DNA from: an uncultured Acidimicrobiia bacterium
Lineage (GTDB): Bacteria > Actinomycetota > Acidimicrobiia > Spongiisociales > ZC4RG35
Direction of reading: 5' to 3'
DNA length: 64,000 bases
Assembly: GCA_963772815.1 (NCBI GenBank)
Contig: CAVYYV010000004.1
Span: 15,418 to 79,417, forward strand
Shown: piece after piece, positions 19,830 to 41,466 of the stretch
Numbering within the stretch: position 1 is the stretch's first letter
Layout of the letters: the number at the start of each line of letters is the position of its first letter
Made by a program: the position numbers and the translations under genes
The notes under the pieces: generated by a model
Seen by the model: only the letters and a program-made list of their open reading frames with translations
Told to the model about the DNA's origin: nothing
Database searches by the model: none

Positions 19830-20042
19830 CGTTCCGTCATCGTTACGGAACAGCGCCGTGGGCTGGCCTTGCGTCAGGCCGCCCGGATCATCGGGATTGA
19901 CTACGGCTACCTGGGCCGGTTGTGTCGAGGTGAGCGGTGCCCGAGCAGGGAGGTGGCGGAGCGTTGATCGCGGTGCTGGACCTGGACTCGTGAGGTGTGT
20001 CTGATTTAATGTCGCACGTTCCGGATGTTTCAGACCGCATGG

Positions 20043-20864: not shown

Positions 20865-21071
20865 GCAAGCCTCCTTCAGGCTCAGCCCAGAACCCTCCCA
20901 TGCTGGCTGAATCCCACCCGGAATAGCGACACGAAATCAGCCCCACGACACTCGGGGGTGGCGGAGGAGTTGGGGGCGGTGGCGGTGGAGCGGGCTGAGG
21001 GTTTGGCGGCTTCGTACCGGTCTCGTAACGGGGGATGGTAAGACTCTTGCGGTGTGGTGAGGTAGGTCTGA

Positions 21072-25053: not shown

Positions 25054-26046
25054 GTGGTGCGTGCGGCGTGGTACGAACGTCAAGGTCCTGCCCATGAGGT
25101 CGTCGAGGTGGGGGAGATGCCCGAGCCTCATGCCGGTCCCGGCGAAGTCCGGGTCCATCTGGCGACCTCGGGGGTCAACCCGTCAGACGTGAAACGCCGC
25201 GGCGGATGGCGCGGTCAGCAGATGCCCTTCGACCGGATCGTGCCTCACAGCGACGGAGCCGGAGTGATCGACGAGGTCGGCGACGGTGTCGGCTCGGCGA
25301 GGATGGGTGAACGGGTCTGGGTCTACAACGCACAGTGGAAGAGGCCCTTCGGCACGGGCGCCGAGTACGTGGCGCTTCCCGCGGCCCAGGCGGTCCACCT
25401 GCCCGATGGGTCCGGGTTCCCTGCCGGAGCGTGTCTCGGGATTCCCGGGATGACCGCTCACCGGTGCGTCTTCGCAGATGGCGCCGTCGAGGACAAGACC
25501 GTCCTCGTCACTGGAGGAGCCGGGAGCGTCGGCTTCTACGCCGTTCAATTGGCCAAGTGGGGCGGGGCGACCGTGATCACCACGGTGAGCAGCGGGGCCA
25601 AGGCCGAGGTTGCCGCATCCGCGGGAGCCGACCACGTTCTCAATTACCGGGAGGACGACGTGGCCGGCCGCATCATGGAGATCAGCGACGGCGCGGGCGT
25701 AGACCACATCGTCGAGGTGGACTTCGGCGCCAACCTGCCGGTGGGCGACGCGGTCCTCAAGCGGCACGGAGTCATTGTCACGTACGCCTCCATGAGCAAG
25801 CCGCAGCCCGTTCTTCCCTTCTACTCCCTCATGGTGCGGAACGTGCTGATCCGCTTCGTGTTCGTCTACGAGGAGCCGCCGGCCGAGCTGGCGCGGGCGA
25901 CCCGGGATATCGACACCTGTCTCGAAGAAGGGTTCCTCCGGCACCTCATCGCCGAACGCTTTCCCCTCGGAGAGACTGCAGCGGCTCACGTCGCCGTCGA
26001 GAGCGGTCGCCTCATCGGCAACGCGGTGATCGACGTCGGTTCGTGA
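25054..26046 (+). CDS. NADPH:quinone oxidoreductase / zinc-independent MDR family (Qor-like)
   Basis: 'VLVTGGAGSVGFYAVQLAKWGGATVITT' Rossmann motif. Qor-like N-terminus 'GEVRVHLATSGVNPSDV'. Start assumed at GTG ~25054. Confidence 0.8.
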   Translation: MVRAAWYERQGPAHEVVEVGEMPEPHAGPGEVRVHLATSGVNPSDVKRRGGWRGQQMPFDRIVPHSDGAGVIDEVGDGVGSARMGERVWVYNAQWKRPFGTGAEYVALPAAQAVHLPDGSGFPAGACLGIPGMTAHRCVFADGAVEDKTVLVTGGAGSVGFYAVQLAKWGGATVITTVSSGAKAEVAASAGADHVLNYREDDVAGRIMEISDGAGVDHIVEVDFGANLPVGDAVLKRHGVIVTYASMSKPQPVLPFYSLMVRNVLIRFVFVYEEPPAELARATRDIDTCLEEGFLRHLIAERFPLGETAAAHVAVESGRLIGNAVIDVGS

Positions 26047-26060
26047 CCCCGGCCGCTTCC

Positions 26061-26545
26061 TCAGGTTCGGCCTGTGGCCCCGAACCGCTTGAGGGTGAGC
26101 GTCTCTCCGACCTCGACCCCGAGGTTCCGTGCGTCGGCGATCTCGAGGACAGCCGACGCCAGTGCCAGGTCCTGGAGGCCGGTTCCGGTGGACTTGAACA
26201 GGGTGAGTTGCTCGGGCGCGGTCCGGCCGGGGTGCAGCCCGGCCACCAGCGAGCCGAGAGACCGGGATCGATCCGGGTCCAACCCCCGCTCGACCGCGGC
26301 CACGGCGTCACCGGCCTGTTCGTAGCCGAGCTCGACGGAGTCGCAGACGATGGGATCGAAGCAGTCGACGAAGCGGGCATCGACCACGTCGCGCATCTCG
26401 TCGATGAACTCGGACCGGTTGGCCGCGTTGCGTGAGAAGACGCGGATCTCCTCGACTGGCCGAACGGCCTGCAGGGCAGGCAGTTGGGACCGAGCCACGG
26501 ATCCGGTGCCGATGACGGCGACTCGCTCGAGGGCCGACAAAGGTG
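26061..26545 (-). pseudogene. Truncated inverted duplicate of the 3' half of the ornithine cyclodeaminase/mu-crystallin gene at 35683..36675 (~99% identical, with a 168-bp in-frame internal deletion)
   Basis: Protein of ORF 26061..26540 equals residues ~115-331 of the 35683..36675 product, minus 'STVDEAV...GRFDL' (56 aa). Nucleotide identity is visible, e.g. 'ctcaccctcaagcggttcggggccacaggccgaacctga' at both loci. Confidence 0.7.
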
Positions 26546-26574
26546 CACGACAAGTCTGATCAGCCCACGTGCGG

Positions 26575-27361
26575 CATCACTGCTTCGGCCCACAACTGAG
26601 CGACCTCTTCCCACGCATACTCGGGAGGAGTCACGAGGAAGCTCTCCAGTCCGATCGAGCGGAGTTCGCGGGACGCGGTCGATGCAATCACCTGGTGTAC
26701 CGGAAATAGTGAATCTGTGCACGAGGTAGTCGGATATCAGCTCGACCGGGACCCGTTCTTCTAGGGGCCGGCTGATGTCGAACGCCTCCATGAGGCGCCG
26801 GACTCCTTCGCGCTCGGCCTCCGGTACCGACTCGAGCGACAGCCGGAAGTTGTGATGGGCTCGGTTGGCGATGCGGCGGCGGGCGAGCTTACGAGCGGTC
26901 TCGCCGTCCTCCGACACATAGATGATGCCGGCTGCCATGAGATGGATCGACTCCGGGTCCCGACCTGCCTCCGCAGCACCCTTGGCGATGCGTTGACGAG
27001 CGGACTCGATCACGTCGCGGTCGAATCCGCTCCCCAGCATCACGCCATCGGCGACCCGGTCCGCCGCCTCGAGGCCTCTGGGCCCGTCCACCGCGAAGTA
27101 GATCGGCACCGTGGTGTCACCGGCCGAGTAGCGAAGACCAACCGGACCGACTGCCGACTCCACCGTGCCACCGGTGAGCAACGCGTGGATCGTCTTCGTC
27201 GCCTGCTCCATGTCAGCAAGCCGGGTCGGCTTGCGACCGAACGTGTACGTGCTGGCATCGCCGGTTCCGATGCCCAGGACGAAGCGACCTCCCGTGATCT
27301 GGTTGGCCGTGGCCGCCTGCCCCGCCAGCAGCGTCGGGTCACGAAAGACCACGTTGGTCAC
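26575..27361 (-). CDS. LLM-class F420-dependent oxidoreductase, 3'-truncated by the duplicated cyclodeaminase fragment (probable pseudogene)
   Basis: 'FVLGIGTGDASTY...' LLM family. Recognisable sequence stops near '...FTISGTPGDCIDRV', after which ORF 26012..27361 reads the duplicated segment out of frame. Confidence 0.65.
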
Positions 27362-27882
27362 CGCGGTGCCCAGAGTGATGCGACTGGTGACGAATCGAGC
27401 AGCGGTGATGAGCTGAAACGGGTCGAGGACCGAGATCTGACCATCTGCGACGAACAGCCCCGAGTAGTCCTACTCCTCCGTCAGTCGAACCCTGGAGAGG
27501 AACGGCTCGAAATCCGTCGACGACGCGTGTAGATAGAACTTGGTCATCGACTCCTCGCCACCGAGATGGATCGAGAGAAAATCCTAACGCCGGAGTAGGA
27601 CATGTGGCGATGGAAACGCCATCTACCACAGGCGAGATCGCGCGACTGGAGGAGCACCGTCAAACGGGGTCAAATCGGAAACCTCCTGAGCCCGTCGACC
27701 CGGGGAGGCCCGCCGTTGTCATCCCACACGCGACATCTGGATCCACCGGGGGGGTACGGTCGGGTCCGATTCGTGCCGGCCTATATGAGGCAGGCGACGG
27801 ACCGTGCGTCGGTCAGTGCCTGATGGATAGGGGCTTGTCTGCTCGGATTTGACCGGTTGAGCCCGCGGAGCATTATGGCAGA

Positions 27883-28377
27883 GTGCTCGAGCGTCTCTTT
27901 CCCCCGGACCGCCCACCGACGGGCTGGCGTCGTCTCCTCCTAGGCTCGCCGGTCTACCTATGTCGGATCGGACTCGGCCGCCTGTTCGGTCATCGACTGT
28001 TGGTGATCACCCACCGGGGACGGCACCCAGGACGCATCTACCGGACCCCGGTTGAGGTTGCCAGATACGACTCGGCCACCGAAGAGGCGATAGTGCCCTC
28101 GGGGTGGGGACCACAGGCGGACTGGTACCGCAACATCCAGGCATCGCCCGCCACCGAGATCTGGCTTGCCGGGCGCCGCTTCCGCCCCCAACAGCGGTTC
28201 CTCTCTGAGTCCGAGGCGGCGGCCGTGATGGCGGATTACGCCCGGCGCCATCCGCGGGGAGCGCGCGAGCTGACACGCTGGATGCTGGGCCGTCGGTACG
28301 ACAGCGCCCACCAAGTCGGGGACGCGCTCGCCGCCAAGGTCCCTTTCGTCGGTTTCCGGCCCCCCTCGCCACCTTGA
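27883..28377 (+). CDS. Deazaflavin (F420H2)-dependent nitroreductase family protein, paralog 2
   Basis: 'VITHRGRHPGRIYRTPVEVARYD...ADWYRNIQASPATEIW' parallels 13520..14032. Confidence 0.8.
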   Translation: MLERLFPPDRPPTGWRRLLLGSPVYLCRIGLGRLFGHRLLVITHRGRHPGRIYRTPVEVARYDSATEEAIVPSGWGPQADWYRNIQASPATEIWLAGRRFRPQQRFLSESEAAAVMADYARRHPRGARELTRWMLGRRYDSAHQVGDALAAKVPFVGFRPPSPP

Positions 28378-28484
28378 CCCCGGTTCTACAGCTCATCGGT
28401 GGTGCACTGAAATTCGGGTTGAGCCTAGGCGACCTACGCAGCTGGATGGACCAGTTCTAGGTGGGCGACCGCTCCCTTTCCAAC

Positions 28485-28610
28485 GCTCGATAGAACGTGG
28501 TTGGGACGGAAGAGCCGGGTAGCACGGGCGAAATCGCGTGATTGCGGGAGCACCGTTGAACGGGCGTCATACCCGCCCTGGCTCCCGGCATCCGACCAAA
28601 GTAGGACCTG
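28485..28610 (-). repeat. Inverted-orientation copy of the dispersed ~125-bp repeat family
   Basis: Reverse complement reads 'ccgggagccagggcgggtatgacgcccgttcaacgg...cccaaccacgttctatcgagcg', collinear with 13330-13432. Confidence 0.55.
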
Positions 28611-28779
28611 TTGGGGGGGATTGGGCAATGGCCTGAGGCGAATCGATGAATGACCGAAGGCGCTTTCAGACACCTGTCGAGCGTTGTCGATAGAGTGCGC
28701 CAGGCACCGCGACCTCGAAGCTTGAGCGGTTGCAGAGCTTGAAGACAAAAGCTGAGGTCGTCGAGGGCCACAGAGATAT

Positions 28780-29631
28780 TTAGAGAGTCTGAAGGATCGC
28801 GACCGTGGCTCGGGCTCGGTCCTTCCAGACGTTCGTGATTTGGCTGAACGCTTGAGTTGAGCCCAGCCTCACTGCCTGACGGTCCGCTTCGATAGCGAGC
28901 CATTCCAGGACGGGCTGGGGAGATTGGTCGAGGAGGGATCTGAGAGCGTAGGCTCGCTCGCCGATGCGGATCCCTGCGTTGGTGGTTGCGGCGGCGCGAT
29001 TGAGGTCGGCGTGAGTGAGGATGATGCCGCTGCGAACGGGGGCGAGGAGGTAGGTGATGAGGTCGTCGGGCCCTTGTGGGAGTGAAGGTGGATCGGCCAG
29101 GTGGCGGGATGGTTGGTGAGGGCCCGGGTCGGTATGGAGGGCCGACCGGATGACTTCGATGATGAGTTGCGCCCAGGCCGGGTAGGGGGTAGGGGCGATG
29201 TTCTCGACTCGGGTGAGGTACGGAATCAGCCACGGGGCGAGGTGTTCGTAGACGAGGGTGTGTTGGGCGTGTAGGAGGAGACGGCGTCGGGCCGGGTCGC
29301 CGTTCGCGGCGGGGTCGAGAAGCGCGGCCCATAGCCCCAGGAGGGCGGCGAGATGGTCGGGTTCGGGGGGTGGGGTGAATCCGGTGGCGTGCCAGAATCC
29401 GGCTATTCGGTCTCTGGCTTGGCCACCGATCTTGCCGTCGGGGTCGAGGTAGATGGAGGCGTAGGGGGGAAGCTGGCGGATGAACAGCTCGGTGTGATCG
29501 GCCGGGTCAGGGACTGGAAGCCCCAACAGGGCTGCAATGCGTTCCGACTCTGGCGTGGGTCGTTCGCAGAGAACGGCCAGGGCGCGGATCAGTTCGGCCT
29601 GCTCAGTGGTGGGGGATTGTGTATAGGTCAC
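28780..29631 (-). CDS. TorD/DmsD-family redox-enzyme maturation chaperone
   Basis: 'FIRQLPPYASIYLDPDG' and 'EPDHLAALLGLWAALL' resemble TorD-family PPYxS and E(P/Q)xDH motifs. Lies immediately downstream of the molybdoenzyme catalytic subunit. Confidence 0.6.
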   Translation of the reverse strand: MTYTQSPTTEQAELIRALAVLCERPTPESERIAALLGLPVPDPADHTELFIRQLPPYASIYLDPDGKIGGQARDRIAGFWHATGFTPPPEPDHLAALLGLWAALLDPAANGDPARRRLLLHAQHTLVYEHLAPWLIPYLTRVENIAPTPYPAWAQLIIEVIRSALHTDPGPHQPSRHLADPPSLPQGPDDLITYLLAPVRSGIILTHADLNRAAATTNAGIRIGERAYALRSLLDQSPQPVLEWLAIEADRQAVRLGSTQAFSQITNVWKDRARATVAILQTL

Positions 29632-32513
29632 GGGAGGGTTTGAGGGGGCGGAGAAACCAGTAGGGGCGGCGGGTTCCGTCGGGGGAGGTCCCGTCGGCGG
29701 GTCGGGTCAGGGACAGCCAACGCTGGTAGGCGGCTCGGGAACGGGCCGTGTCGACGGCGATGTCGCCGTGGCTGTCGCCAGGTTGGGCTTTGGTGACCCG
29801 GACGGCCTGGTGCCAGCAGTGCTGCCCGGAGATGGGGTCGGGTTGGACGGGGAAGGTGAGGTTTTGGTGGACGCCGACCTCGGTCCACCAGATGCGGCTG
29901 GTGTCGGGGTCGGCCGACGGGAACGGCCCGATACCGGCCTGGCGGTCGAGTTGCCAGGCGTCGGCCTGGTGTTGGAGCGAGACGGTGGCCATGGCTTGGC
30001 GTTGGCCTTGGTCGGTGAGCTTCCAGCGTCCCATGTGATGCGAGCAGGCCACCACACCGGGTCGGATCCCTTCGGTGACCCAGGCTTTGACCACGAAGTG
30101 GCCGATTTCGGTTTCGACCCGGACCAGGTCCCCAGTGGCGACGTCGAGACGGGAGGCGTCGGTGGGGTGGATCCAGAGCGGGTTGGTGTGGGCGATCTCG
30201 TCCAGCCATTTGGCGTTGGCGGAGCGGGTGTGGATCTGGGTGGGGAGCCGGAAGGTGGAGATGAGCGGCATCTGACCGGCCTCCAGGTTATTCGGGTGGA
30301 TGTGGCTGCGGATGTAGCCGGGGAGGGCATGTTCTGACCATCCCCAGTCGACCATGGTGGCCGAGTAGAACTCCAACTTCCCCGACGGGGTGGGGAATCC
30401 CGCTAGGACCTGCCCGTCGACTTTCACTCCGACCGGTCGCCGTCCCTCCGAGTCGGGGTCGGGGCTGGATTGGGGAACCACGTTGGGCCTGGCCGGTTTG
30501 GGCGCCGCGGTGTAGACCCGCCCGAAGGGGTCCTCGCCCGGGTCGGCCAACTCGTCGTTGCCCACCGGCTGCTCGTGGACGGCTCCAACGCCTTTGGTCA
30601 CCTCGAACGCGCCGTAGCGTCGCATGTACTGGAGCGGAGTGAGTCCTTCGGCGGCGGCGGCTTCGGGCAGACCGGGGACCGAGTTCTCGAACATCCACCC
30701 GTAGTACTCGTCCACGCCCAGCTTGGTGCCCGGATCGGCCTTGGATTCGTAGTACTGGCGGATACCCAAAGAGCCGTCGGGGTCGATCCGCCAGGACAAC
30801 TCGATCCAGAACTCGTTCTCTTCCCACACCTCACCGGGGTTGACCTGGCGGGTGTCGGTGATCTCCTCGCCGGCCCGTTCACGGGCGGCGCGCAGCACCG
30901 GCTGGCGGAACCCGATCCACTGCCCGTCATACTGCTCGTAGGACGCAACGTCGTGACGTTCCGACGATAGGCCCATGGGCAGCACATAGTCGGCGAAATA
31001 GGCCGTCTCCGACCAGGTGGGGGTGAGCGCCACATGCAAGCCGACCTTTGAGGGGTCGGTCAGCATCTCGATCCAACTGAACCCGTCGGGGTTGGTCCAC
31101 ACCGGGTTGTACACCCGGGAGAAGTAGACGTCGATGCTCCCCCGCCCCTCGCCCACGAAATGGGGCAGCAGGAAGGACAGCTCATGCATGGCCAGCGGAT
31201 ACTCCAGCGGCCAGGTGAGCTCGTTCCACACCGGCGGATGAGGAGGGGAGTGGATCGGACGGGGTACGAACTTGTTCCAGGCGTTGGGATAGGTGCCGCC
31301 CGGTGTGGCCACCGCCCCCATCAGGGCGTTGAGCAGAAACAGGGTGCGCGACACCTGCCATCCGCCCAGGTTCCCCGCCGCCGCCGACCGCCAATTGTGA
31401 GTCGACAAACGAGTACCCGCCCCCGCCACCAGCTCGGCGACCTCCACGAAGCACGTCGGCGGCGATGCCCGACTCGGCCGAGGCGAACTCGAAAGTGAAC
31501 TCGGCGTACAAGCCCGCCAGAACCTCCTCGAACGCTTCGAACGTGGAAGGAAGGTCGGGATGCTGGGCGGCCAGGTACCGGTCCCAGTTCCACCAGCGGC
31601 GCACGAACTCACGGTTGTAACGGCCGGTCTGAATGAGATGGTTGGCGATGGCCAGGTTGATGGCCGCCTCCGACCCCGGATAAGGCGACAGCCAATGATC
31701 GGCATGGGTGGCGGTGTTCGACAGCCGGGTGTCCAACACCACCAGCTTGGCGCCCCGACGACGGGCGTCGGTGATGCGCTGAGCATGAGGATTGAAATAG
31801 TGGCCCGCCTCCAAATGAGCCGAGATCAGATAGATCACCTCGGCGTTGGCGTGGTCGGGGCTGGGCCGATCCAGACCCATCCACAACTCATAACCCACCC
31901 GCGATCCCGACGAGCACACGTTGGTGTGCGAGTTGTGCCCATCGATACCCCAGGAAGCCATCACCCGCTCGGTGAAACCATCCTCACCCGGCCGACCCAC
32001 GTGATACATGACCTGATTGCGGCGCCCCTCGCTCAACGCGGCCCGGATCCTGGCGGCGATGTCGTCCAGAGCCTCGTCCCAATCCACCTGCACCCACCGG
32101 CCCTCACCCCGGGCCCCGACCCGCTTCAACGGATACAGGATCCGATCCGGGTCGGTGACCTGGTTCACCACCGCCGGGCCCTTGGCGCAGTTGCGTCCCC
32201 TCGAACCCGGATGCTCGGGATTGCCCTCGAACTTGCGCACCTGCAACGTGTCCCGATCCACATACGCCAACAGGCCACAAGCCGACTCACAGTTGAAACA
32301 CGTCGTAGGCACCAACGCATAACGCTTCTCGACCCGCTCCGGCCACGACCGCGAATCCAACTCCACCCAATCGTCCCAACGCTCCCGGGGAGGAAACGAC
32401 GCCAAATGGACCCGCGACGGACCCGGATAGAACGTCTCCCCACGGGCCTCCACCTCGGCCCGAGCCGCCGACACCAACCCACCCAACTCTCCCAGGCGAT
32501 CCGTCACCACCAT
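29603..32513 (-). CDS. Molybdopterin (Mo-bisPGD) oxidoreductase catalytic subunit, DMSO-reductase/CISM family, no Tat signal; frame break near 31440 joins ORF 31182..32567 to ORF 29603..31786
   Basis: N-terminal FS0 cluster motif 'CFNCESACGLLAYVD'. MopB-like body ('KLVVLDTRLSNTATHADHWL', 'LNALMGAVATPGGTYP'). C-terminal molydop-binding beta-barrel ('WIHPTDASRLDVATGDLVRVETEIGHFVVKAWVTEGIRPGVVA'). Confidence 0.75.
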
Positions 32514-32520
32514 CTCCTTC

Positions 32521-34059
32521 TCATGCCAGCGGCACCGCCTGTCCCGACTGGACATAGGCATGCTCATAAGACAACAACCCGACCAGGGCGAAGGGAGCCG
32601 CCCACACCCCCATCCAGGGCGCCAGAACCGCCACCGCCATCAACCCCACCGACACCCATAAGAACCAGGCGTACCGGCCCCGGGTCATCTCCCACACCGC
32701 GGCATGGGCATGGGCGGTGCCATGCGGCAGAACAACCTCCCCCCACACCAACAACAGATGCACCAACGCCGCCCCACCCAACAGCCAACCCAAAGCCTCA
32801 GTGGCGGCCGAATCGACGAAGGCGTCGACCATCAACAACCCCGCCGCTCCCCCCAAAACCGCCTGCACCGCGATATGAGGAGGCAACAGCGGCGACTGCC
32901 ACAAATCCCGAGCCTTGGACTGGGCAAACAGAAACGCCGTGTACACCGCCGCCATCACCGACAACGGCAAACCCGCCACCGCCAAACCCTGGCGCAAACC
33001 CACCCAATCGACCATCCCCGACAACACCTGGGCGGCCAGCACCGCCCCGTAAGCCAGGATGATCACCGCCCCCCGCACCAACCAACTGCGCCACTGGGGC
33101 TGGGTGAACAACAACAAGAACCGCCCCGGATGCTTCAAATCCGCCACCAGAATCACCCCGGTTGCTGCCAAGAACACCAACCCCACCACCGGCGCCGCCC
33201 ACACGAACAGATCCGCCGACCAACCCAGGAACCCCGTCAACACCAACAGCAAAGCCACCAGATAGGCCCCGGCCGCCAACGACTTCGTCCACGTGTACAG
33301 GCTGACCGGCCAACCCCACGGCGCTCGATGCGGCACGTCATAAGACACCAGCGCCGCCGCCGACGAATTCGCCCGTCCAGCACGCATACCGCTCCCCACC
33401 CCCGGACCCTGCCCCGCCCACGCATACAGACCCCCCTCCGGCCGGCGAGCCGACAAAGGATCCAACGTCGACTGATGAGCCCCCACATAGAACAACTTGG
33501 GTCGGGTCTCCTTCTCCGGGCGACGCACCGAAACCGGCTTGCGACCCACCACCCCGGCCACCGCAGACGACGGATCGTTCACATCCCCCACCAGGATCGC
33601 CTCCGTCGGGCACACCACCACACAGGCCGGCTCCAACCCCACATCCAACCTGTGCGCGCAGAAGTTGCACTTCTCCGCCGAGTGATCCTCGGGATTGATA
33701 AAGATCGCGTCATAAGGACAAGCCGCCATACACGCCTTGCACCCGATACAGACCCGCTTGTCGAAATCCACGATCCCATCCGAACGAGCGAACATGGCCG
33801 CCGTCGGACACGCCGCCACACACGGAGCATCCTCACACTGATTACAACGAGTCACCTGAAACGCCCGCCGCACCTGGGGAAACACCCCCACATCCACCGA
33901 CTTCACATAAGTGCGAGTCACCCCCAACGGCACCTCATTCTCCGACTTACACGCCGTCGTACACGCATGACAACCAATACACACCGACTGATCGATCACC
34001 TTCACCCAACCGGCAGGCTTCGATTCAGCAATCTGGGAGTGGCGGAGAGGTACGTTCAT
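32521..34059 (-). CDS. Fused 4Fe-4S ferredoxin-type electron-transfer subunit (DmsB/PsrB-like, four Cys clusters) and NrfD/PsrC-like polytopic membrane anchor
   Basis: Four 'C..C..C...CP' motifs ('CIGCHACTTAC', 'CNQCEDAPCVAACP', 'CIGCKACMAACP', 'CNFCAHRL...CVVVCP') followed by ~8 TM helices. Confidence 0.8.
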   Translation of the reverse strand: MNVPLRHSQIAESKPAGWVKVIDQSVCIGCHACTTACKSENEVPLGVTRTYVKSVDVGVFPQVRRAFQVTRCNQCEDAPCVAACPTAAMFARSDGIVDFDKRVCIGCKACMAACPYDAIFINPEDHSAEKCNFCAHRLDVGLEPACVVVCPTEAILVGDVNDPSSAVAGVVGRKPVSVRRPEKETRPKLFYVGAHQSTLDPLSARRPEGGLYAWAGQGPGVGSGMRAGRANSSAAALVSYDVPHRAPWGWPVSLYTWTKSLAAGAYLVALLLVLTGFLGWSADLFVWAAPVVGLVFLAATGVILVADLKHPGRFLLLFTQPQWRSWLVRGAVIILAYGAVLAAQVLSGMVDWVGLRQGLAVAGLPLSVMAAVYTAFLFAQSKARDLWQSPLLPPHIAVQAVLGGAAGLLMVDAFVDSAATEALGWLLGGAALVHLLLVWGEVVLPHGTAHAHAAVWEMTRGRYAWFLWVSVGLMAVAVLAPWMGVWAAPFALVGLLSYEHAYVQSGQAVPLA

Positions 34060-34666
34060 CGCTCAGATCATCCGCCCGAAGCTTGTGCCAAGCGCGGCAG
34101 CCGCGTCCACATGGACGAGCATCGTAACTGCGTGCGGGCCGGGCCTTCGCGGTGTGGCGGGCCTCGGCTATTCGTCCGGCGTTTGGGAGTTTCGACCAGA
34201 GAACCTTGCCGCCCACGGCGTAGCTGATCGCAAACACCACTGCTGGGTCAGCCACCTGAGCGCGTTCAATAGAACGGGTAGGCGCCTGCTGGCCTGCGAT
34301 TCAAGGACCAATGGGCAGACCACGGTATGGAGCTCACACCAACGTCAGCCACGTCCTCGGTGAGGACGATGCGCGACATTGATCCGTCGGGTTCCGGCCC
34401 ATCTCGTCTCACCCAGCCGCGCGCCCCTGAAACCGTCCCGCGCGCCCCTCTGATCCTTAGCCTCCAGACCAACCCGTTTCCCCTGAAGCACCCACCGTCA
34501 CCCGGATCCAGGCTAGTCGACGGCCCCGTTCCGCGTCGAACGGGAATCGGGGGTTATGAGAGGGAGTGGGCTTCTATCCCCAAGCCTCCCACCCAGATCC
34601 CTCCCGGCGCATGGCGGCCCGTCCGACCTCTCCTACAGTGACCCCACGGCCACCACCGTGGAGATC

Positions 34667-35683
34667 ATGCCGACGTACACACGGTCCGAGATCAAGGACT
34701 GGGCTCGAGAGCACATGCAAGGGGTCTGCAACGTGATCATCCCCAGCTACACGGCAGACCTCAGAGACATCAACGAGGCCGGGATCCGGCACGATGTCCG
34801 CCGCAACATCGAACTCGGATTCTGGGGCGCCCTGCTCGTTTCGGAAGCAGGCACCACACACGACGAGATGCGTCGCTTCATGGAGATCGCCGTCGACGAA
34901 GCGCGGGGACGGCACCACTTCGTGTTGCAGGCAGCCTTCGACACGCCTGAAGACATCATCGAGATGGGCCGGGCGGCCACCGACATCGGGATCGATGCCC
35001 TGCTCCTCGGTCAGCCGAACAGCTTCTACCCTCGAACGCCCGACAGCCTCGAGGCGTACACCCGACACGTCTGCGCCTCCGTGGATCTGGCGGTCGTGCT
35101 GTTCATCGTGGCCCATTCGAACCTGGCCAGGCTGGACCCCAGCGGCTATCCGCGGGAGGTTCTCGACCGGGTCGTCCACCTCGACAACGTCGCCGCGGTG
35201 AAATACGAACTGGGGCGTCACAACACCACGATCACATATGAGACGTTCCGCCGCCTGGAGAACCAAGGCGTCCTGCTCTCGGACCCGATGGAGTACAACG
35301 CCCCGATGTGGATCGACCTCTTCGGGATGCAATGGATGGGGACCAGCAACTACGAGTACTACGGCGACCGGGTTCCCCGTCTGTTCACCGCGCTTCGCGA
35401 CGGCCGAACCGACGAGGGCATGGCGCTGTGGTGGGGCATCCACCCGGTGCGGCAGGCGAGAGCTCGCCAGATGTCATCCATGTCGGGAGCCAACTTCATC
35501 CACCGTTACCTCTGGAAGTACCAGGCGTGGCTGAACGGATACAACGGGGGCCCGATCCGCCAGCCCGCCATGAAGCTGACGGACGACCAGATGCGAGCCG
35601 CGGCGGCACCGCTCATTCAGACCGAAATCGCCTCCAATGCCGTCGAACTCGCCGACTTCTTCGTCGGAAGGAACCCGGCTTGA
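34667..35683 (+). CDS. Dihydrodipicolinate synthase/N-acetylneuraminate lyase superfamily (class I aldolase-like) protein, divergent
   Basis: TIM-barrel DHDPS-family layout with a Schiff-base-type Lys in 'NVAAVKYELG'. Start overlaps the downstream gene by 1 nt (TGATG). Confidence 0.7.
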   Translation: MPTYTRSEIKDWAREHMQGVCNVIIPSYTADLRDINEAGIRHDVRRNIELGFWGALLVSEAGTTHDEMRRFMEIAVDEARGRHHFVLQAAFDTPEDIIEMGRAATDIGIDALLLGQPNSFYPRTPDSLEAYTRHVCASVDLAVVLFIVAHSNLARLDPSGYPREVLDRVVHLDNVAAVKYELGRHNTTITYETFRRLENQGVLLSDPMEYNAPMWIDLFGMQWMGTSNYEYYGDRVPRLFTALRDGRTDEGMALWWGIHPVRQARARQMSSMSGANFIHRYLWKYQAWLNGYNGGPIRQPAMKLTDDQMRAAAAPLIQTEIASNAVELADFFVGRNPA

Positions 35684-36675
35684 TGGTCCGCATCCTCGAC
35701 GGACCCACGATCGACTCCATCCTCACCGTGGACCTCGCGCTCGACGCCATGCGTCGCGCCTTCGCTCTCGAGGGAGCCGGCCGGGCCGGCCCTGCCGCCC
35801 GCGTCGACATAGGGCACCCCAAGGGATGGATGCGGGTCCTCCCCGCAGCCTTCGAGGGCCTCGGCGTGTTCGGCCTGAAGACGATCTCGATGCAGACGGG
35901 CCTCGGTGTTCGCTACGCGGTTATCGTCCACGATCTCGAGAGCGGGGCACTCCGCGCCCTCGTCGACGCACAGGCGATCACGGGCGCCAGAACCGGCGCC
36001 ACGGCAGCCGTGGCGGCAGAGCACCTCTGTCGGCCCGACATCGAGCGAGCCGCCGTCATCGGCACCGGATCCGTGGCTCGGTCCCAGCTGCCTGCCCTGC
36101 AGGCCGTTCGGCCAGTCGAGGAGATCCGCGTCTTCTCACGCAACGCGGCCAACCGGTCCGAGTTCATCGACGAGATGCGCGACGTCGTCGATGCCCGCTT
36201 CGTCGACTGCTCGACGGTCGACGAAGCCGTCGAAGGCGCGTCGCTGGTGACCCTTGCGACGAAAGCGCCGCAGCCGGTGCTGGTACCCGAACACCTCCGT
36301 CGGGGTATGCACGTCAACTCCGTTGGTGCCGCCCGGCCGAACCTCTGCGAGCTGGATCCCGACGCCTTCGGCAGGTTCGATCTCATCGTCTGCGACTCCG
36401 TCGAGCTCGTCTACGGGCAGGCCGGTGACGCCGTCGCCGCGGTCGAGCGGGGGTTGGACCCGGATCGATCCCGGTCTCTCGGCTCGCTGGTGGCCGGGCT
36501 GCACCCCGGCCGGACCGCGCCCGAGCAACTCACCCTGTTCAAGTCCACCGGAACCGGCCTCCAGGACCTGGCACTGGCGTCGGCTGTCCTCGAGATCGCC
36601 GACGCACGGAACCTCGGGGTCGAGGTCGGAGAGACGCTCACCCTCAAGCGGTTCGGGGCCACAGGCCGAACCTGA
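35683..36675 (+). CDS. Ornithine cyclodeaminase/mu-crystallin family protein (ketimine/cyclic imino-acid reductase-like)
   Basis: 'AVIGTGSVARSQLPALQAVRPVEEIRVFSRN' Rossmann region. Full-length 331 aa. Source of the inverted partial duplicate at 26061-26545. Confidence 0.8.
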   Translation: MVRILDGPTIDSILTVDLALDAMRRAFALEGAGRAGPAARVDIGHPKGWMRVLPAAFEGLGVFGLKTISMQTGLGVRYAVIVHDLESGALRALVDAQAITGARTGATAAVAAEHLCRPDIERAAVIGTGSVARSQLPALQAVRPVEEIRVFSRNAANRSEFIDEMRDVVDARFVDCSTVDEAVEGASLVTLATKAPQPVLVPEHLRRGMHVNSVGAARPNLCELDPDAFGRFDLIVCDSVELVYGQAGDAVAAVERGLDPDRSRSLGSLVAGLHPGRTAPEQLTLFKSTGTGLQDLALASAVLEIADARNLGVEVGETLTLKRFGATGRT

Positions 36676-36839: not shown

Positions 36840-38423
36840 ATGACGAAGACGGCTGACATCGTCGTCGCCGGGGCCGGACACAACAGTCTCGTGACGGCGG
36901 CATATCTGGCGAGCGCCGGCTATGAGATCGCCATCGTCGACGCACGACCGATCCCCGGCGGTGGTGCCACCACCGAGGAGTTACTGCTGGACGGATTCTG
37001 GGTGGACACCTGCTCGACCGGACACACACTGATCCAGGTCAACCCGCTGATTCGCAACGACGAGCTGGGCCTAGTCGCCAAATACGGCCTCTCCTACATC
37101 GATCCCGACCCGGTTGAGGTGGTGGCCTTCCCGGACGGTGAGGCGATCACGATGTGGCTCGACCTCAACGAGACCTGCGCCGAGATCGCCCGATTCTCAC
37201 AGCGCGATGCAGAGGCGTATCGCCGTCTGCTCGACGAGTGGGACGAGATCAAGGGTGTGGTGGGCGCCACCCGGTTCAGACCGGTCGGATACGGACCCAG
37301 CCCACAAGAGGTGATGGCGAGCCACCCCCGCGGGGGTGTGTGGATGCGCCGTTCGATGATGAGCGCCCGTGACCTCATCCTGCACGATTTCGAGAGCCCC
37401 CACGTACGCGCCTTCATGGGCTGGATGGCATCGCAGACGGCGGTACCGATCGACGGCGCCGGTACCGGTCTACTCGCCTATCAGATCATCGGGGGGCGAC
37501 AGGTCCGTAGCTGGTCGATCCCCGTCGGCGGATCGGGGAAGTTGGTGGAGGCGCTCGTCGGTTATCTCGAAGACCACGGAGCAACGATCGATTGCGGCCA
37601 GACGGTGTCCGAGCTGATCCTCGACGACGGTCGCTGCGTCGGGCTTCGGACCGAGAACGGCGAGGAGTACCGGGCTCGTCGTGCCGTCTTGTCGACGATC
37701 CATGTCAAGCACCTCGTGGACATGGCGCCGCCGGAGGCGTGGGGCGAGGACTTCCTCTACGGAGTCGACACCTATCACGTAGGCATCCCCTTCTTCGCCG
37801 CCTACTTCGCCACCACCGCCGCGCCGGCCTTCACGACCCACGACGGTTCCCGATCCTCGGTATCGGCCGGCGTCGCCGGCTGGATCGACGACCTGGCTCG
37901 CGGTGCCCGCAGAGTCTCGGACGGGCAGTATTGCGAGGAGGATCCCTTCCTGCTCGTGGCCACACCCACGCTCGCCGATCCGAGTCGCAGCCCCGGTGGA
38001 ACCCACACCGTGAAGATGGTGACCTTCAACGCCTACGATCCGGGTGGTGGACCACGGCGTTGGGACGACATCAAGGGGACGCACTCCGACCGTCAGGTCG
38101 AGTACCTGCGGCGGTTCGCCCCCAATTTCACCGACGACGTGATCATGGCGCGCATGGTGAAGTCCCCCCTGGACATCGAGCGGATCAACCCGCACATGGT
38201 CCACGGGGCCCCACACGGTGGGGACCGAGGAATCGCATTCACCGGTGCGCAGCGACCCGTCCCGGGATGGGCCCAGCACAGGATGCCGGTTCCCGGCCTG
38301 TACCAGACCGGAGGGACCACGCACCCGGGCGGTTCGATCACCGGCGCGCCCGGTCGCAATGCGGCGATCGTGATGTTGGAGGACCTGGGTCACGATCCGG
38401 CGGAGTTCACGGCGCTCGACTGA
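36840..38423 (+). CDS. FAD/NAD(P)-binding oxidoreductase of the phytoene-desaturase (CrtI-like) / amine-oxidase superfamily
   Basis: 'ADIVVAGAGHNSLVTAAYLASAGYEIAIVDARPIPGGGATT' dinucleotide-binding motif. Strong RBS 'gagaaggagagagc'. Confidence 0.8.
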   Translation: MTKTADIVVAGAGHNSLVTAAYLASAGYEIAIVDARPIPGGGATTEELLLDGFWVDTCSTGHTLIQVNPLIRNDELGLVAKYGLSYIDPDPVEVVAFPDGEAITMWLDLNETCAEIARFSQRDAEAYRRLLDEWDEIKGVVGATRFRPVGYGPSPQEVMASHPRGGVWMRRSMMSARDLILHDFESPHVRAFMGWMASQTAVPIDGAGTGLLAYQIIGGRQVRSWSIPVGGSGKLVEALVGYLEDHGATIDCGQTVSELILDDGRCVGLRTENGEEYRARRAVLSTIHVKHLVDMAPPEAWGEDFLYGVDTYHVGIPFFAAYFATTAAPAFTTHDGSRSSVSAGVAGWIDDLARGARRVSDGQYCEEDPFLLVATPTLADPSRSPGGTHTVKMVTFNAYDPGGGPRRWDDIKGTHSDRQVEYLRRFAPNFTDDVIMARMVKSPLDIERINPHMVHGAPHGGDRGIAFTGAQRPVPGWAQHRMPVPGLYQTGGTTHPGGSITGAPGRNAAIVMLEDLGHDPAEFTALD

Positions 38424-38886
38424 ACGAAGGGCTGACACGAATAGGCCGGGATCCGGAGCGGGTAGAAATCATCGAGACGATCGCCGGCAACGACTTGCAC
38501 CTCATGTATGACGAGGTCGGGGACGGGCTCGACGCCCCGATCTTCCCGGGCAAGCCCCCGGGACGGTCCATTCCCCGTCGTGCTACTCGCGTCGGGCAAA
38601 GGCGGCGAGGGGATGCGATGGGTCCGCACGCCTGCGCCAATCCGCTACCTCATGATGGCGGATCGATGCAGGCTAGGTCTGTGCCTGGTTGAGACACCGC
38701 AGGCAAGAATGCGAATGGGTCTCGTCCGACCACGATCTCCGTGGCTACATCTATCCAATCTGTGGCTCCGACGGCGAGTACGAGGTCGACGACGTACAGG
38801 AGAAGGCGACAGCCCACGTGATCGGATATCCGGACGGGCGATTGAAACCCTGAGCCACGATGGCGCCGGGAGCATTTGCCCAAATC

Positions 38887-38900
38887 AACAATCGATTGCA
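38887..38900. promoter_or_regulatory. Palindrome CAATCGATTG (site 1 of 3) ~55 bp upstream of the SAF/UxaA operon
   Basis: 'aacaatcgattgcatg'. Related sites at 43400-43411 and 44719-44730. Confidence 0.3.
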
Positions 38901-38954
38901 TGATCGGCCAGGATCGATGCGATAAGCATCGGCGGAGACCTGGAAAGGAAGCCA

Positions 38955-39236
38955 ATGATCCACTTCATCGTCCATGACGAAAACGACTCGGTTGGAGTCG
39001 TGGTCGTCGAAGGAATCGAAGCAGGCGACGCTATCGACGGGTGGATCATGGACCAGCAGCGCGACATCCAGGTCCAGGCGAAGGACGCCATCCCCATCGG
39101 CCACAAGCTGGCGGTCACCGACCTCGCTGAGAAAGACACGGTGATCAAGTACGGGGTCGACATCGGCCGCGTGGTGGCTCCGATCAAGGTCGGCGAGCAC
39201 GTCCACGTCCACAACGTCAAGACCAAGCGTTGGTGA
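38955..39236 (+). CDS. SAF-domain small subunit of a split UxaA-type (altronate/galactarate) dehydratase
   Basis: 93 aa '[19 protein letters not shown]...[43 protein letters not shown]' is a SAF/GarD-N-like fold. Confidence 0.7.
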
Positions 39237-39321
39237 TTCGGCCGGTCACGACAACACCCCTGGCGTCTCACCGTCACCGTTGAACTCCGTACTGCCATCG
39301 AAAGAAGCAGGAGGCCACACC

Positions 39322-40497
39322 ATGTCACTCGATCTCGCCAACGCAACCTTCCAGGGCTATCTCCGAGAGAACGGCCGCGTAGGTGTCCGCAACCACGTCC
39401 TGATCCTCTCCGTCGACGACATCTCCAATGCCGCCATCGAAGCGGTCGCAAACAACATCAAGGGGACCATCGCCATCCCCCACCCCTATGGCCGGCTTCA
39501 GTTCGGCGCCGACCTCGATCTGCACTTCCGCACATTGATCGGGACCGCATCGAACCCAAACGTGGCGGCGGCCGTGATCGTCGGGATCGAGGAGGAGTGG
39601 ACCGCCAAGGTCGTCGAGGGCGTCGCCGCCACTGGGAAGCCGGTCGCAGGGTTCGGCATCGAACGGCACGGAGACCACGACACGATCATGCGGGCCTCCA
39701 CCAAGGCGCAGGAGTTCGTCCACTGGGCCACCGTCCTCCAGCGCGAGGAGCGCCCGCTGAGCGACCTCTGGGTCTCGACCAAGTGCGGAGAGTCCGACAC
39801 GACGTCGGGGCTGGCGTCCAATCCCGCGGTGGGCAACATGTTCGACAAGCTGTACGAGCACGGGGTGACCATGGTCTTCGGTGAGACCACCGAGCTGACC
39901 GGTGGCGAGCACCTGGTGGCGGCCCGGTGCAAGACGCCGGAGATCCGGGAGCGGTTCCAGTTCATGTTCGACCGTTATCAGGATGTGATCGAGGCGCACA
40001 AGACGAGCGACCTGTCGGACTCGCAACCGACCAAGGGCAACATCGCCGGTGGCCTCACCACCATCGAGGAAAAAGCGCTCGGCAACATCCAGAAGATCGG
40101 CCGCACGTCGATGATCGACGGCGTGCTCGACAAGGCAGAGACGCCAACCGGGCCCGGCCTCTGGTTCATGGACTCCTCGTCGGCGGCCGCCGAGATGGTC
40201 ACGCTGTGCGCCGCCTCCGGCTTCACCGTTCACATGTTCACCACCGGTCAGGGGAACGTGGTGGGCAATCCGATCCTCCCGGTCATCAAGACGTGCGCCA
40301 ATCCACGTACGGTCCGCACGATGGGAGAGCACGTCGACACCGACATCACCGGCCTCCTCCGCAAGGAGATGACCATCGACGAGGCGGGTGATGCTTTGAT
40401 CGACATGACCCTCCAGACGGCGAACGGGCGGCTGACCGCTGCCGAGGTTCTCGGGCACCGGGAGTTCGTCCTCACCCGACTGTACGAGAGCGCGTGA
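39322..40497 (+). CDS. UxaA-family sugar-acid dehydratase large subunit (altronate dehydratase C-terminal domain)
   Basis: '[19 protein letters not shown]', '[14 protein letters not shown]', '[28 protein letters not shown]' match the UxaA/GarD family. AGGAGG RBS. Confidence 0.8.
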
Positions 40498-40585
40498 ACC
40501 TCCGGGTGGCGCCTCTCGACGGACGAGGTGGGTCGGTCGGACGAGCCGATCGAAGCTCATCGCCGAGCCCGGGGAGGGACCGCTG

Positions 40586-41416
40586 ATGCGTCACTCGTTC
40601 AAGGTTTGGGCTCAGCAGGCCGAGTGGGCCCAGCTGCGTGACATCTGGGTCGAGGCCGATCGGGGCGAATTCTGGGACATGGTGTGGCTCAACGACCACC
40701 TCTATCCACCCAAGTCCCCGTCGAGTCTTCCCATCATGGACGCCTACACGCTGTTCGGAGGCCTGGCGGCCGTGACCGAACGGTTGCGGTTCGGCACGAT
40801 GGTCACGGCCAACACCTTCCGTCACCCAGTCATCCTCGCCAAGCAGCTGGTGACCCTGGACCACATGTCCGACGGACGCCTCGAGATCGGAGTCGGTGCC
40901 GGTTGGCACGAAGGCGAGCACAAGGCGTTCGGGATCGATCTCCCGCCACTCGAAGAGCGCTTCGAGTTGCTCGACGAGACCTTCACCATCCTCCACGGGC
41001 TCATGACCGAGGAGGTGTTCAGTTTCCAGGGCAGGCATCGGACCATCCGGGACGCCCACTTCGAGCCCAAGCCGATCCAGCGACCACGGCCACCGTTCGT
41101 GATCGGTGGCAGCGGCCCCAAACGCACCATCCCGCTGGCCGCCAAGTGGGCAGATCAGTGGAACTATCCGGATTATGTGGGCAACCCCGAGGCGTTCGCT
41201 GCGTCGCTCGCGGTGCTCGACGCGGCTTGCGCGGCCATTGGTCGCGACCGCTCCGAGATCGAGGTGTCTGTCCAGTTCCGTTACTCGGGTGATCTCTCCC
41301 ACGCCCTGGATCTGGTGAGCGCGTACACCGAGTATGGCGCCGAACACATCCTCGTCAGCTTCACTCCACCGGCCGACCCATCGCTGCCGCCACTGCTGGC
41401 CGAAACCCTGGCCTGA
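40586..41416 (+). CDS. LLM-class F420-dependent oxidoreductase (luciferase-like monooxygenase family)
   Basis: 'LEIGVGAGWHEGEHKAFGIDLPPLEERFELLDETFTIL' is the LLM TIM-barrel signature. Confidence 0.8.
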   Translation: MRHSFKVWAQQAEWAQLRDIWVEADRGEFWDMVWLNDHLYPPKSPSSLPIMDAYTLFGGLAAVTERLRFGTMVTANTFRHPVILAKQLVTLDHMSDGRLEIGVGAGWHEGEHKAFGIDLPPLEERFELLDETFTILHGLMTEEVFSFQGRHRTIRDAHFEPKPIQRPRPPFVIGGSGPKRTIPLAAKWADQWNYPDYVGNPEAFAASLAVLDAACAAIGRDRSEIEVSVQFRYSGDLSHALDLVSAYTEYGAEHILVSFTPPADPSLPPLLAETLA

Positions 41417-41466
41417 TCGGGACTGAGGACCCTGTCGGTGCTCGGCCCGCGTGACACCATGGAAAC

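Follow-up and report, generated by a model that had tools for sequence, protein, structure and literature searches.

The question raised by this locus is how the 3′ part of a gene of the ornithine cyclodeaminase (OCD)/mu-crystallin family comes to stand twice, in opposite orientations, in the 64,000-nt stretch of uncultured Acidimicrobiia DNA analysed here (the window). The first-pass annotation had offered three possibilities for the pair, namely repeats that could promote inversion of the intervening DNA, the mark of a past rearrangement, or an assembly chimera. The second of these has gained support, and comparison with relatives now allows it to be made specific, whereas the other two have fared less well and are weighed further below.

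The two copies and the genes around them

That the duplicate is real, inverted, partial and nearly identical is agreed on by a repeat search of the window, which returned arms of 328 and 171 nt, by a self-BLAST of the window, in which the two arms (E = 7.6e-148 and 8.7e-84) rank by far as the strongest repeat, and by the base-by-base register, in which the last 655 nt of the OCD gene are matched on the opposite strand by a shorter copy at 26 kb, hereafter the relic (Table 1). Within this register, 26061-26360 aligns to 36675-36376 (300 nt, 5 mismatches) and 26360-26530 to 36211-36041 (171 nt, 3 mismatches), and beyond a 4-nt gap there follow a further 15-16 nt of homology (26531-26546) with 1 mismatch. 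The in-frame deletion noted previously is confirmed, but its length is 165 nt rather than 168 bp, corresponding to 55 codons (OCD residues 177-231), with 1 nt of microhomology at the relic junction at 26360, and it is joined by a second deletion of 4 nt near the 5′ end of the relic and by 9 substitutions. Identity between relic and gene is 98% overall, the final 240 nt are identical, and the OCD stop codon is the exact limit of the homology.

Table 1. Coordinates of the repeat, its flanking genes and the intervening segment within the window
Feature	Position	Strand	Remarks
OCD/mu-crystallin-family 3′ relic	26061..26546	-	486 nt; distal arm 26061-26360, proximal arm 26360-26530, then 15-16 nt past the 4-nt deletion
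Counterpart of the relic in the functional OCD gene	36021..36675	+	last 655 nt, stop codon included
Block missing from the relic, kept in the functional OCD gene	36212..36376	+	165 nt, 55 codons
Functional OCD/mu-crystallin-family gene	35683..36675	+	330 aa; start overlaps the stop of the DHDPS-like gene
DHDPS-family gene, conserved upstream partner of OCD	34556..35683	+	pairing seen in relatives
FAD-dependent oxidoreductase (amine-oxidase/phytoene-desaturase family), current downstream neighbour of OCD	36840..38423	+	
NADPH:quinone-reductase-type Zn-ADH-family gene (ADH), convergent with the relic	25117..26046	+	ancestral downstream neighbour of OCD, as judged from relatives
Spacer from ADH stop to relic stop codon	26047..26060	.	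14 nt; homologous to the 11-nt spacer of relatives
LLM (luciferase-like, F420-type) oxidoreductase gene	26560..27547	-	full length; likely pseudogene; in-frame TAG 27472-27470, 1-nt insertion 26670
Segment between the inverted repeats	26547..36020	.	9.5 kb; LLM gene, F420H2 quinone-reductase-like gene, NarJ-like chaperone, split molybdoenzyme, FeS-NrfD fusion, DHDPS, 5′ third of OCD

The LLM gene beside the relic had been thought to lose its C-terminal ~45 aa at the junction. The final 38 codons of the gene are still there, however, and are followed by its own TGA stop (26562-26560), with OCD homology starting only 14 nt beyond; the apparent truncation arises because the single extra base at 26670, which is missing in both other assemblies of this region, shifts the frame. 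Conservation of the LLM flank extends over 14 nt, after which OCD sequence abruptly takes over. Intact 328-aa orthologues were found, and the reconstructed 328-aa LLM aligns to them over 100% of its length. The gene is nevertheless likely to be a pseudogene, because an in-frame TAG is common to two assemblies.

The copy at 36 kb reads as a full-length OCD/mu-crystallin-family gene under purifying selection: its product matches PF02423 (E = 2.2e-49) over profile positions 12-310 of 314, its orthologues are 330 aa long at 89-60% identity, and its dN/dS against relatives is 0.15-0.26, with no NCBIfam equivalog cut-off being reached by the product. The relic has an open frame of 159 codons (26540..26061) that is without OCD residues 1-~120 and 177-231, and its Pfam and NCBIfam matches are limited to profile positions ~130-181 and ~234-323 of ~326; in an alignment to 1omo, the deleted block spans the conserved G-x-H-x-N-x-x-G of the nucleotide-binding domain. 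As a functional OCD gene, for which ~320-350 aa are expected, the relic was rejected, neither the N-terminal domain nor a complete nucleotide-binding domain being retained.

Gene order in relatives and the origin of the repeat

In the related contigs L020 and L021 (OCD 78% identical at the amino acid level; from two sequencing runs), DHDPS, OCD and a convergent ADH lie on one contig, and L020 matches both window 34820-36675 and 26361-25526. In L018, whose ADH is 90% identical at the amino acid level, a contiguous 1303-nt alignment (90.8%) links ADH to the OCD 3′ end across the spacer. The adjacency of ADH to OCD or its relic is conserved in all three, and the spacer, 11-14 nt from stop to stop, can be aligned among them and the window. 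By this comparison the junction of ADH, spacer and OCD stop is ancestral, and the direction implied by the first-pass annotation, with a new copy dropped beside the LLM gene, is wrong on the ADH side. The 165 nt absent from the relic are present in the ADH-adjacent OCD 3′ end of L018, and since purifying selection acts on that copy (dN/dS about 0.15), the ADH-adjacent site would once have held a working gene, as it still does in L018. L018, L020 and L021 are short contigs built from short reads, and two-copy genomes could let an assembler walk through the repeat; had this happened, the full-length OCD beside ADH would be uncertain, while the junction of ADH, spacer and OCD stop would still be real.

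The pairing of DHDPS with OCD recurs in L011, L016, L012, L013 and L020, and the junction of OCD with the FAD oxidoreductase (36675|36676), which in this comparison is the derived one, is common to the window, L016 and L011, intergenic DNA included. Between the window and L016/L011 the DHDPS-OCD-oxidoreductase block is 91.5-91.6% identical, adjacent genes about 92-93% and the repeat itself 90.8%; no relic was found within 9 kb upstream of the L016 DHDPS. Gene order in the relatives shows, as far as contigs of this kind can be read, an ancestral locus in which DHDPS was followed by OCD and OCD converged with ADH, and a rearrangement that moved DHDPS-OCD before the FAD oxidoreductase and left behind, attached to ADH, an inverted duplicate of the 655 nt at the OCD 3′ end. 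We consider it probable that the relic is the leftover of this rearrangement at the ancestral position, homogenised by gene conversion, and that it is a non-functional remnant and not a newly inserted copy.

The likeliest mechanism would be a single inversion, of which one breakpoint would have been a staggered cut spanning the 655 nt between the spacer just past the OCD stop and a site within the gene, so that fill-in of the overhangs would have given each end of the inverted segment its own copy of these 655 nt. The later decay of the relic is plain from the alignment, two stretches of 165 and 4 nt having been lost and 8 substitutions private to it acquired. Within the relic reading, such a staggered-break origin is a fair way short of assured, though quite possible. 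With such an origin the exact end of the homology at the OCD stop would be understandable, because only a break in the spacer leaves both OCD and ADH intact; the same sequence is found inverted at both ends of the rearranged segment, each copy holds one ancestral junction, and L020 and L021, short short-read contigs as they are, have the contiguous arrangement. On this model the LLM 3′ flank would be expected to have once run on into the 5′ flank of the oxidoreductase; the LLM orthologue is followed downstream by other neighbours (TetR or SDR) in L017 and L009, and the LLM flank of L017 gives a weak anchored match to window 36676 onward (8/12, p about 0.04). The segment between the repeats has been rearranged again, its quinone-reductase-like gene being inverted relative to L016; the whole history is not explained by any single event.

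The strongest alternative, although an unlikely one, is that the whole DHDPS-OCD operon was duplicated upstream of the FAD oxidoreductase and that the old ADH-adjacent copy then decayed under the same gene conversion, from an ancestor with two complete copies in which a deletion or rearrangement removed DHDPS and the 5′ third of OCD and brought the LLM gene alongside. The undeleted, selected OCD 3′ end of L018, beside ADH and at about the distance of L016, is compatible with relatives that have two loci, and the window OCD is nearer to L016 (dS 0.22) and L018 (0.33) than these are to each other (0.44), with shared derived states (14 for window-L016, 12 for window-L018, 4 for L016-L018) as expected from a mixing of two paralogous lineages. 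These counts, however, come close to the noise level that an outgroup 22% divergent would produce, and window-L016 identity in the repeat (90.8%) is not below that in the unique OCD 5′ part (90.3%), which gives no sign of B-to-A transfer. In a duplicated block, moreover, an exact end at the OCD stop has no reason, the DNA separating OCD from the oxidoreductase includes nothing derived from ADH, and no genome with two complete OCD copies was seen among those compared.

Identity of the copies and divergence of their orthologues

Both junctions of the relic reading predate about 9% divergence, the junction types being shared with relatives at about 91%, yet relic and gene differ by only 2%, which implies gene conversion. 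Identity of the relic to the functional gene is 98.6%, 91.5% and 100% in three sub-regions, where its identity to L018 at the orthologous position reaches only 90.3%, 81.4% and 90.0%, and none of the private differences of the relic is shared with L018; the copies within one genome are more alike than the copies at orthologous positions, and both loci are older than the split. When L016 and L011 serve as outgroups, the relic has the derived state at 8 of the 9 inter-copy differences and the functional gene at 1. All 8 relic substitutions fall within 59 nt of an indel or of the 5′ junction (p = 0.0009-0.007 by simulation), and the last 240 nt of the relic have none (p = 0.036), a clustering that is expected if conversion tracts rarely reach heterologies. 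From these patterns we strongly infer that the relic is maintained by gene conversion from the functional gene, which would repeatedly overwrite it by RecA-type exchange between the inverted repeats; such overwriting would account for the near-identity of the copies, complete over the last 240 nt, where the orthologous DNA of relatives is only about 90% identical.

Substitutions clustered by the indels and the 5′ junction are also what break-induced or template-switching synthesis gives, and together with the 98% identity of the copies, the microhomology of 1 nt only at the 165-nt deletion and the abrupt passage from conserved LLM flank to OCD they would fit a recent de novo inverted copying of an OCD piece (by template switching or templated insertion) into an existing intergenic region between convergent ADH and LLM genes, with the skips of 165 and 4 nt, like the substitutions close by, stemming from the same error-prone synthesis. 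We regard this as very improbable: the ADH-side junction and spacer are common to L018 (about 91%) and L020/L021 (about 76-78%), so that OCD would have stood beside ADH long before the window copies reached their present likeness, and no relative with an "empty" ADH-LLM site was found.

Possible function and known parallels

Retention of the fragment for a function, whether as a small OCD-derived protein or as an invertible arm switching DHDPS-OCD between the FAD oxidoreductase and ADH, deserves hardly any credence. The relic frame is open, both deletions leave the downstream OCD frame intact and, of the 8 substitutions specific to the relic, 5 are synonymous when read in that frame (codon positions by hand), but an open frame is expected anyway under frequent conversion, three substitutions (L->P, V->G, A->V) are radical for a folded domain, and the product would have no N-terminal domain at all and would lack the core of the nucleotide-binding fold. 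The relic also lies downstream of a pseudogene, and a sigma-70-type scan, a weak test for this phylum, gave no promoter-like site. As for switching, promotion of inversion by the repeats is mechanistically possible, but two long assemblies, the window and L001, give no evidence of an inversion of the 9.5-kb segment, which has the same, single orientation in both, and no recombinase gene occurs among the called neighbours. Crossing over between the repeats would flip the 9.5 kb that separates them, with an outcome that depends on the arm involved: a crossover within the 300-nt distal arm would bring back the ancestral order of DHDPS-OCD convergent with ADH and leave OCD intact, as it would be in either orientation, and one within the 171-nt arm would transfer the deletion into OCD. 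That the pair still flips the block and toggles the operon context of DHDPS-OCD is speculative, with a slim chance of being right. A programmed invertible DNA switch was rejected, the neighbouring products having no recombinase domain and the repeats being 300 and 171 nt of coding sequence in one observed orientation, and so was a composite transposon or IS-bounded element, the repeats being OCD coding sequence and 23-39 kb containing no transposase; no tRNA was found in the window.

An assembly artefact at 26 kb, be it a chimeric join or a collapsed repeat, has a negligible probability despite the general risk of repeats in metagenome assemblies and the private 1-nt indels in the window and L001 (which could be sequencing errors), and the suspected chimera is refuted by three assemblies from ENA/NCBI and JGI, the window included, with the same relic, junctions and inter-copy differences (ENA ERZ25039549 contig_64210, 99.66% over 14.8 kb with zero differences within either repeat; JGI Ga0392306_0089105, 99.93% to the window), by private deletions and substitutions in the relic that are unexpected for a collapsed repeat, and by conservation of the ADH-side junction in other species.

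Staggered breaks yield inverted duplications at inversion breakpoints in the Drosophila melanogaster group (Ranz et al. 2007, PMC1885836). As in those inversions, a non-repetitive gene fragment occurs here twice, inverted, at both ends of a rearranged segment, one copy with the ancestral outer junction (ADH against OCD stop) and the other with OCD 5′-3′ inner continuity, and the outgroup has the single-copy contiguous order. Unlike them, the present case concerns a bacterium and a 9.5-kb segment, its mechanism is drawn from one locus with one breakpoint reconstructed, and the OCD duplicate appears to have been shortened later by internal deletions and homogenised by conversion. Our tentative suggestion, held with more doubt than confidence, is of a bacterial staggered-break inversion, a mechanism documented mainly in Drosophila, whose dead duplicate has been held 98-100% identical by one-way conversion while orthologues diverged by ~9%.

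In Salmonella, the duplicate and inverted genes tufA and tufB undergo RecA-dependent gene conversion bounded by the gene ends (PMC5485169). The OCD copies resemble them in staying near-identical over evolutionary time, in an identity that ends with the homologous coding sequence, and in being a substrate that can also yield inversions. Earlier work by Hughes reportedly linked tuf gene conversion in Salmonella to chromosomal inversion. The OCD copies differ in lying 10 kb rather than hundreds of kb apart and in that conversion is read from sequence patterns; since one of the two is no more than a dead piece, truncated and internally deleted, of a metabolic gene that is itself dispensable, transfer would be effectively one-way. 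Gene/truncated-pseudogene pairs that exchange sequence also form silent-cassette systems such as pilE/pilS of Neisseria, with which the OCD pair shares a complete expressed gene alongside a promoter-less partial copy, the two being recombinationally active together. Here, unlike in pilE/pilS, there is a single cassette, the flow appears to run from gene to fragment, erasing variation rather than creating it, and OCD is a cytoplasmic enzyme in which variation would be without evident benefit.

The locus reveals no new kind of system, and its value lies mainly in a correction and a worked example of ordinary genome history: it records a catabolic gene pair switching neighbours, apparently via a breakpoint in the 11-14-nt spacer, and offers a clean natural case for measuring how near to heterologies conversion extends, in a class of actinobacteria that has received little study and is known from metagenomes alone. 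In the JGI annotation the relic is named an OCD-like protein; it should carry a pseudogene annotation.

The inverted repeat and its setting

The first-pass annotation had described an inverted partial duplicate of the ornithine cyclodeaminase (OCD)/mu-crystallin-family gene about 10 kb from that gene, and this observation is real, with its details here corrected. A repeat search resolved the duplicate into two inverted pairs (26061-26388/36348-36675 and 26360-26530/36041-36211), and base-by-base comparison gave 5 mismatches over 300 nt for 26061-26360 against 36675-36376 and 3 over 171 nt for 26360-26530 against 36211-36041; past a 4-nt gap, 15-16 nt more match with one mismatch, reaching 26546/36021. 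When the whole window is compared with itself by BLAST, no other repeat comes near this pair in strength (E = 7.6e-148 and 8.7e-84). The deletion previously given as 168 bp in frame does lie in the fragment (hereafter the relic) but measures 165 nt (36212-36376; 55 codons), with 1 nt of microhomology, and the relic is without a further 4 nt besides. Homology ends exactly at the OCD stop codon, past which the DNA of the two copies is unrelated.

Features of the OCD neighbourhood and other positions mentioned in the text
Feature	Window position	Strand	Remark
Long ORF	3668-5752	-	contains tandem repeats at 3684-4175
Direct repeat, 148 nt	18422-18568 and 19851-19997		87% identical
Further repeat pair	18558-18599 and 20950-20991
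ORF, 400 codons	18627-19829	-	no Pfam match
NADPH:quinone-reductase-type Zn-ADH-family gene (ADH)	25117-26046	+	one outer flank of the repeat pair
Relic	26061-26546	-	partial copy of the OCD 3' end
LLM F420-type oxidoreductase gene	26560-27547	-
F420H2 quinone-reductase-like gene	27836-28378
Molybdopterin-oxidoreductase catalytic subunit	29603-32567	-	two overlapping ORFs in different frames
Variable patch, 420 nt	31346-31764		at the molybdoenzyme frame change
FeS-NrfD fusion	32521-34059	-
DHDPS-family gene	34556-35683	+	upstream partner of OCD
Functional OCD gene	35683-36675	+
FAD oxidoreductase, amine-oxidase/phytoene-desaturase family	36840-38423	+	other outer flank of the repeat pair
Stretch of ~4 kb	38437-42506		between the FAD oxidoreductase and an EamA gene

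Between the repeats lie, in order, the probable LLM pseudogene, the F420H2 quinone-reductase-like gene, a NarJ-like chaperone, the molybdoenzyme split over two frames, the FeS-NrfD fusion, the DHDPS-family gene and the 5' third of OCD. The closest named OCD homologue (89%) comes from an Acidimicrobiia MAG, and querying GTDB-representative genomes and JGI metagenomes with the OCD protein, under the patterns used, returned no match above 37% identity. The whole window contains no tRNA or Rfam family and the repeat-bounded stretch no transposase or recombinase gene, and mobile-element, tRNA and ncRNA landmarks are absent from the breakpoints.

An assembly chimera, one of the explanations first offered, is refuted, since two further assemblies have the same arrangement. 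Proteins identical to the 159-aa product of the fragment and to the 330-aa OCD are encoded together both on an 870-kb NCBI/ENA contig, which is presumably the source, and on L001 (ERZ25039549 contig_64210). Over 14.8 kb, L001 shares 99.66% identity and the same arrangement with the window; it shows zero differences within either repeat and carries the same inter-copy mismatches. The third assembly, JGI 3300036925 Ga0392306_0089105 (L015), covers LLM, fragment and ADH and differs from the window only by one indel.

Junctions in relatives and the origin of the duplicate

Each outer junction of the repeat pair recurs in relatives. The junction of OCD with the FAD oxidoreductase is common to L011 (GCA_049579045.1) and L016 (ERZ25039549 contig_29030), both of which have the order DHDPS-OCD-oxidoreductase, with intergenic DNA between the last two that can be aligned with that of the window; identity over this block is 91.5-91.6%, and 90.8% inside the repeat. 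The junction running from ADH through the spacer to the OCD stop is common to L018, whose ADH is 90% identical and which aligns with the window over a single contiguous 1303 nt (90.8%) in the order ADH, spacer, OCD; L018 has the 165 nt missing in the relic, and reads as an intact C-terminal half of an OCD under purifying selection (dN/dS ~0.15). L020 and L021 (contigs from two sequencing runs; OCD 78% identical in amino acids) carry DHDPS, OCD and a convergent ADH on one contig with 11 nt between the stops, and L020 aligns with window 34820-36675 and then, through the stop codon, with window 26361-25526. L018, L020 and L021, which like L017 come from SRR31012002-10, are short contigs from short reads, in which an assembler may have crossed the repeat if each genome holds two copies; even then the ADH-spacer-OCD-stop junction must be present in the reads, which suffices for the argument. 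Both junction types are old, and L018, L020 and L021 show that the ancestral locus was DHDPS-OCD with ADH convergent on it. A past rearrangement, also among the initial suggestions, is the correct reading and can be specified: the ancestral locus is split in the window, where the full OCD faces the oxidoreductase and ADH retains only a 3' remnant.

Our preferred source for the duplicate is one inversion made through a staggered break, as has been proposed for inverted duplications found where Drosophila inversions have their breakpoints (PMC1885836). One nick would have fallen in the 11-14-nt spacer right after the OCD stop and the other 655 nt inside OCD, so that one step would both leave ADH joined to a fragment that keeps the ancestral outer junction and place a full OCD beside a new neighbour; homology would end at the OCD stop because only a break in the spacer leaves OCD and ADH both intact. 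This model predicts that the LLM 3' flank was formerly continuous with the oxidoreductase 5' flank, for which the sole comparison, the LLM-downstream flank of the relative L017 against the window, is weak (8/12 anchored matches, p ~0.04). An empty site with ADH and LLM convergent was not found in the relatives, in which LLM orthologues have TetR or SDR genes beside them and a hydrolase gene adjoins a more distant ADH orthologue.

The main alternative, in which the whole DHDPS-OCD pair was duplicated and the old copy then decayed, would fit L018 if that genome has both loci, and would fit the intermediate position of the functional OCD between L016 and L018, but it gives no reason for a boundary at the OCD stop codon, and against it the repeat is no less identical to L016 than is the unique portion of OCD. 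The idea, taken from a further relative with the DHDPS-OCD pair (L012), that an ancestral ADH-amine oxidase operon was broken by insertion was rejected, as the L012 ADH is not orthologous and its oxidase is 31% identical.

Divergence between the two OCD 3' ends

Because both junction types predate the ~9% divergence from L016, L011 and L018, the two OCD 3' ends have coexisted in this lineage at least since then. The relic nevertheless matches the functional OCD at 98.6% in its left arm, 91.5% in the 59 nt beside the deletion and 100% in the last 240 nt, against 90.3%, 81.4% and 90.0% for the same sub-regions of L018, which occupies the orthologous position. L016 and L011 served as outgroups to polarise the inter-copy differences: 8 of 9 arose in the relic and one, at 36416, in the functional OCD. 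All eight relic changes are found no more than 59 nt from an indel or from the 5' junction (p = 0.0009-0.007), and for the 240 nt free of mutations p = 0.036; five are synonymous in the OCD frame, by our own arithmetic more than expected for unconstrained change, a sample of eight being too small to interpret.

This sequence pattern is most simply read as non-reciprocal transfer, many times over, out of the functional OCD into the relic, in tracts that seldom reached the heterologies, for which tuf gene conversion is a bacterial precedent (PMC5485169). Error-prone synthesis at the time the deletions formed could also cluster the changes, but would leave 98% identity across such old junctions unexplained. 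Transfer from the relic into the functional OCD, giving a mosaic functional copy, is suggested by synapomorphy counts, but the repeat and the unique portion of OCD are equally identical to L016. Private relic substitutions as remnants of an older ADH-linked paralogue were rejected, as none matches L018. The locus is a further example of processes already known: a relic of rearrangement combined with concerted evolution.

With lengths of 300 and 171 nt and 98% identity, the repeat arms suffice for homologous recombination. A crossover between the repeats would flip 26547-36020: an exchange in the distal arm would bring back the ancestral gene order and keep OCD whole, and one in the proximal arm would carry the deletion into OCD. 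Only one orientation of the segment is seen (window and L001).

The LLM gene, the relic as a gene and minor observations

LLM had been thought to be truncated at the junction, which is not the case: its coding sequence runs to its own TGA at 26562-26560, 14 nt short of the OCD homology, and these first 14 nt past the stop are still similar to those of the orthologue in L017. The apparent loss of the last 38 codons stems only from one extra base at 26670 in the window, present in neither L001 nor L015. Intact orthologues were found in relatives, and the reconstructed 328-aa protein aligns with these 328-aa proteins over 100% of its length (86% and 82% identity). LLM is probably a pseudogene, because an in-frame TAG at 27472-27470 is common to the window and L001. 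Single-nucleotide indels vary by assembly (L001 has one at 26732, L015 neither) and reflect either strain-specific pseudogene decay or assembly indel errors; such private indels could be sequencing errors.

Lying downstream of the LLM pseudogene, the relic cannot encode a working enzyme, because it has no N-terminal domain and its nucleotide-binding domain is without residues 177-231. A scan of 25.8-27.8 kb for promoters and terminators, a weak test as regards promoters, found nothing. Gene callers predict a 159-aa protein at 26061-26540 (-), named 'ornithine cyclodeaminase/alanine dehydrogenase-like protein' by JGI; this call is an annotation artefact, for which a pseudogene-fragment flag is warranted.

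The F420H2 quinone-reductase-like gene matches L016 5659-6201 (88% nucleotide identity) in opposite orientation relative to DHDPS-OCD and between unrelated flanks, which marks a second rearrangement in this neighbourhood. In the variable patch the window and L001, elsewhere 99.7% identical, show 17 differences (~4%, 2 indels); a DGR-like origin was rejected, as the changes are not confined to A positions, and recombination, strain mixing or assembly error could be responsible. The fusion ORF joins a 4Fe-4S dicluster domain to an NrfD-type membrane domain, and its very strong strand skew (GC skew ~-0.3, AT skew up to +0.48 on the + strand) is consistent with a hydrophobic membrane protein. The ~4-kb stretch beyond the FAD oxidoreductase (two small ORFs, altronate/galactarate dehydratase, a second LLM oxidoreductase and an alpha/beta hydrolase) is missing in L016, reflecting either an insertion in the window or a deletion in L016. 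Farther away, the 148-nt direct repeats, which appear to encode a helix-turn-helix-like peptide, bracket the 400-codon ORF, and the tandem repeats in the long ORF are diverged (~72-76% identical, at offsets of ~190 and 375 nt).
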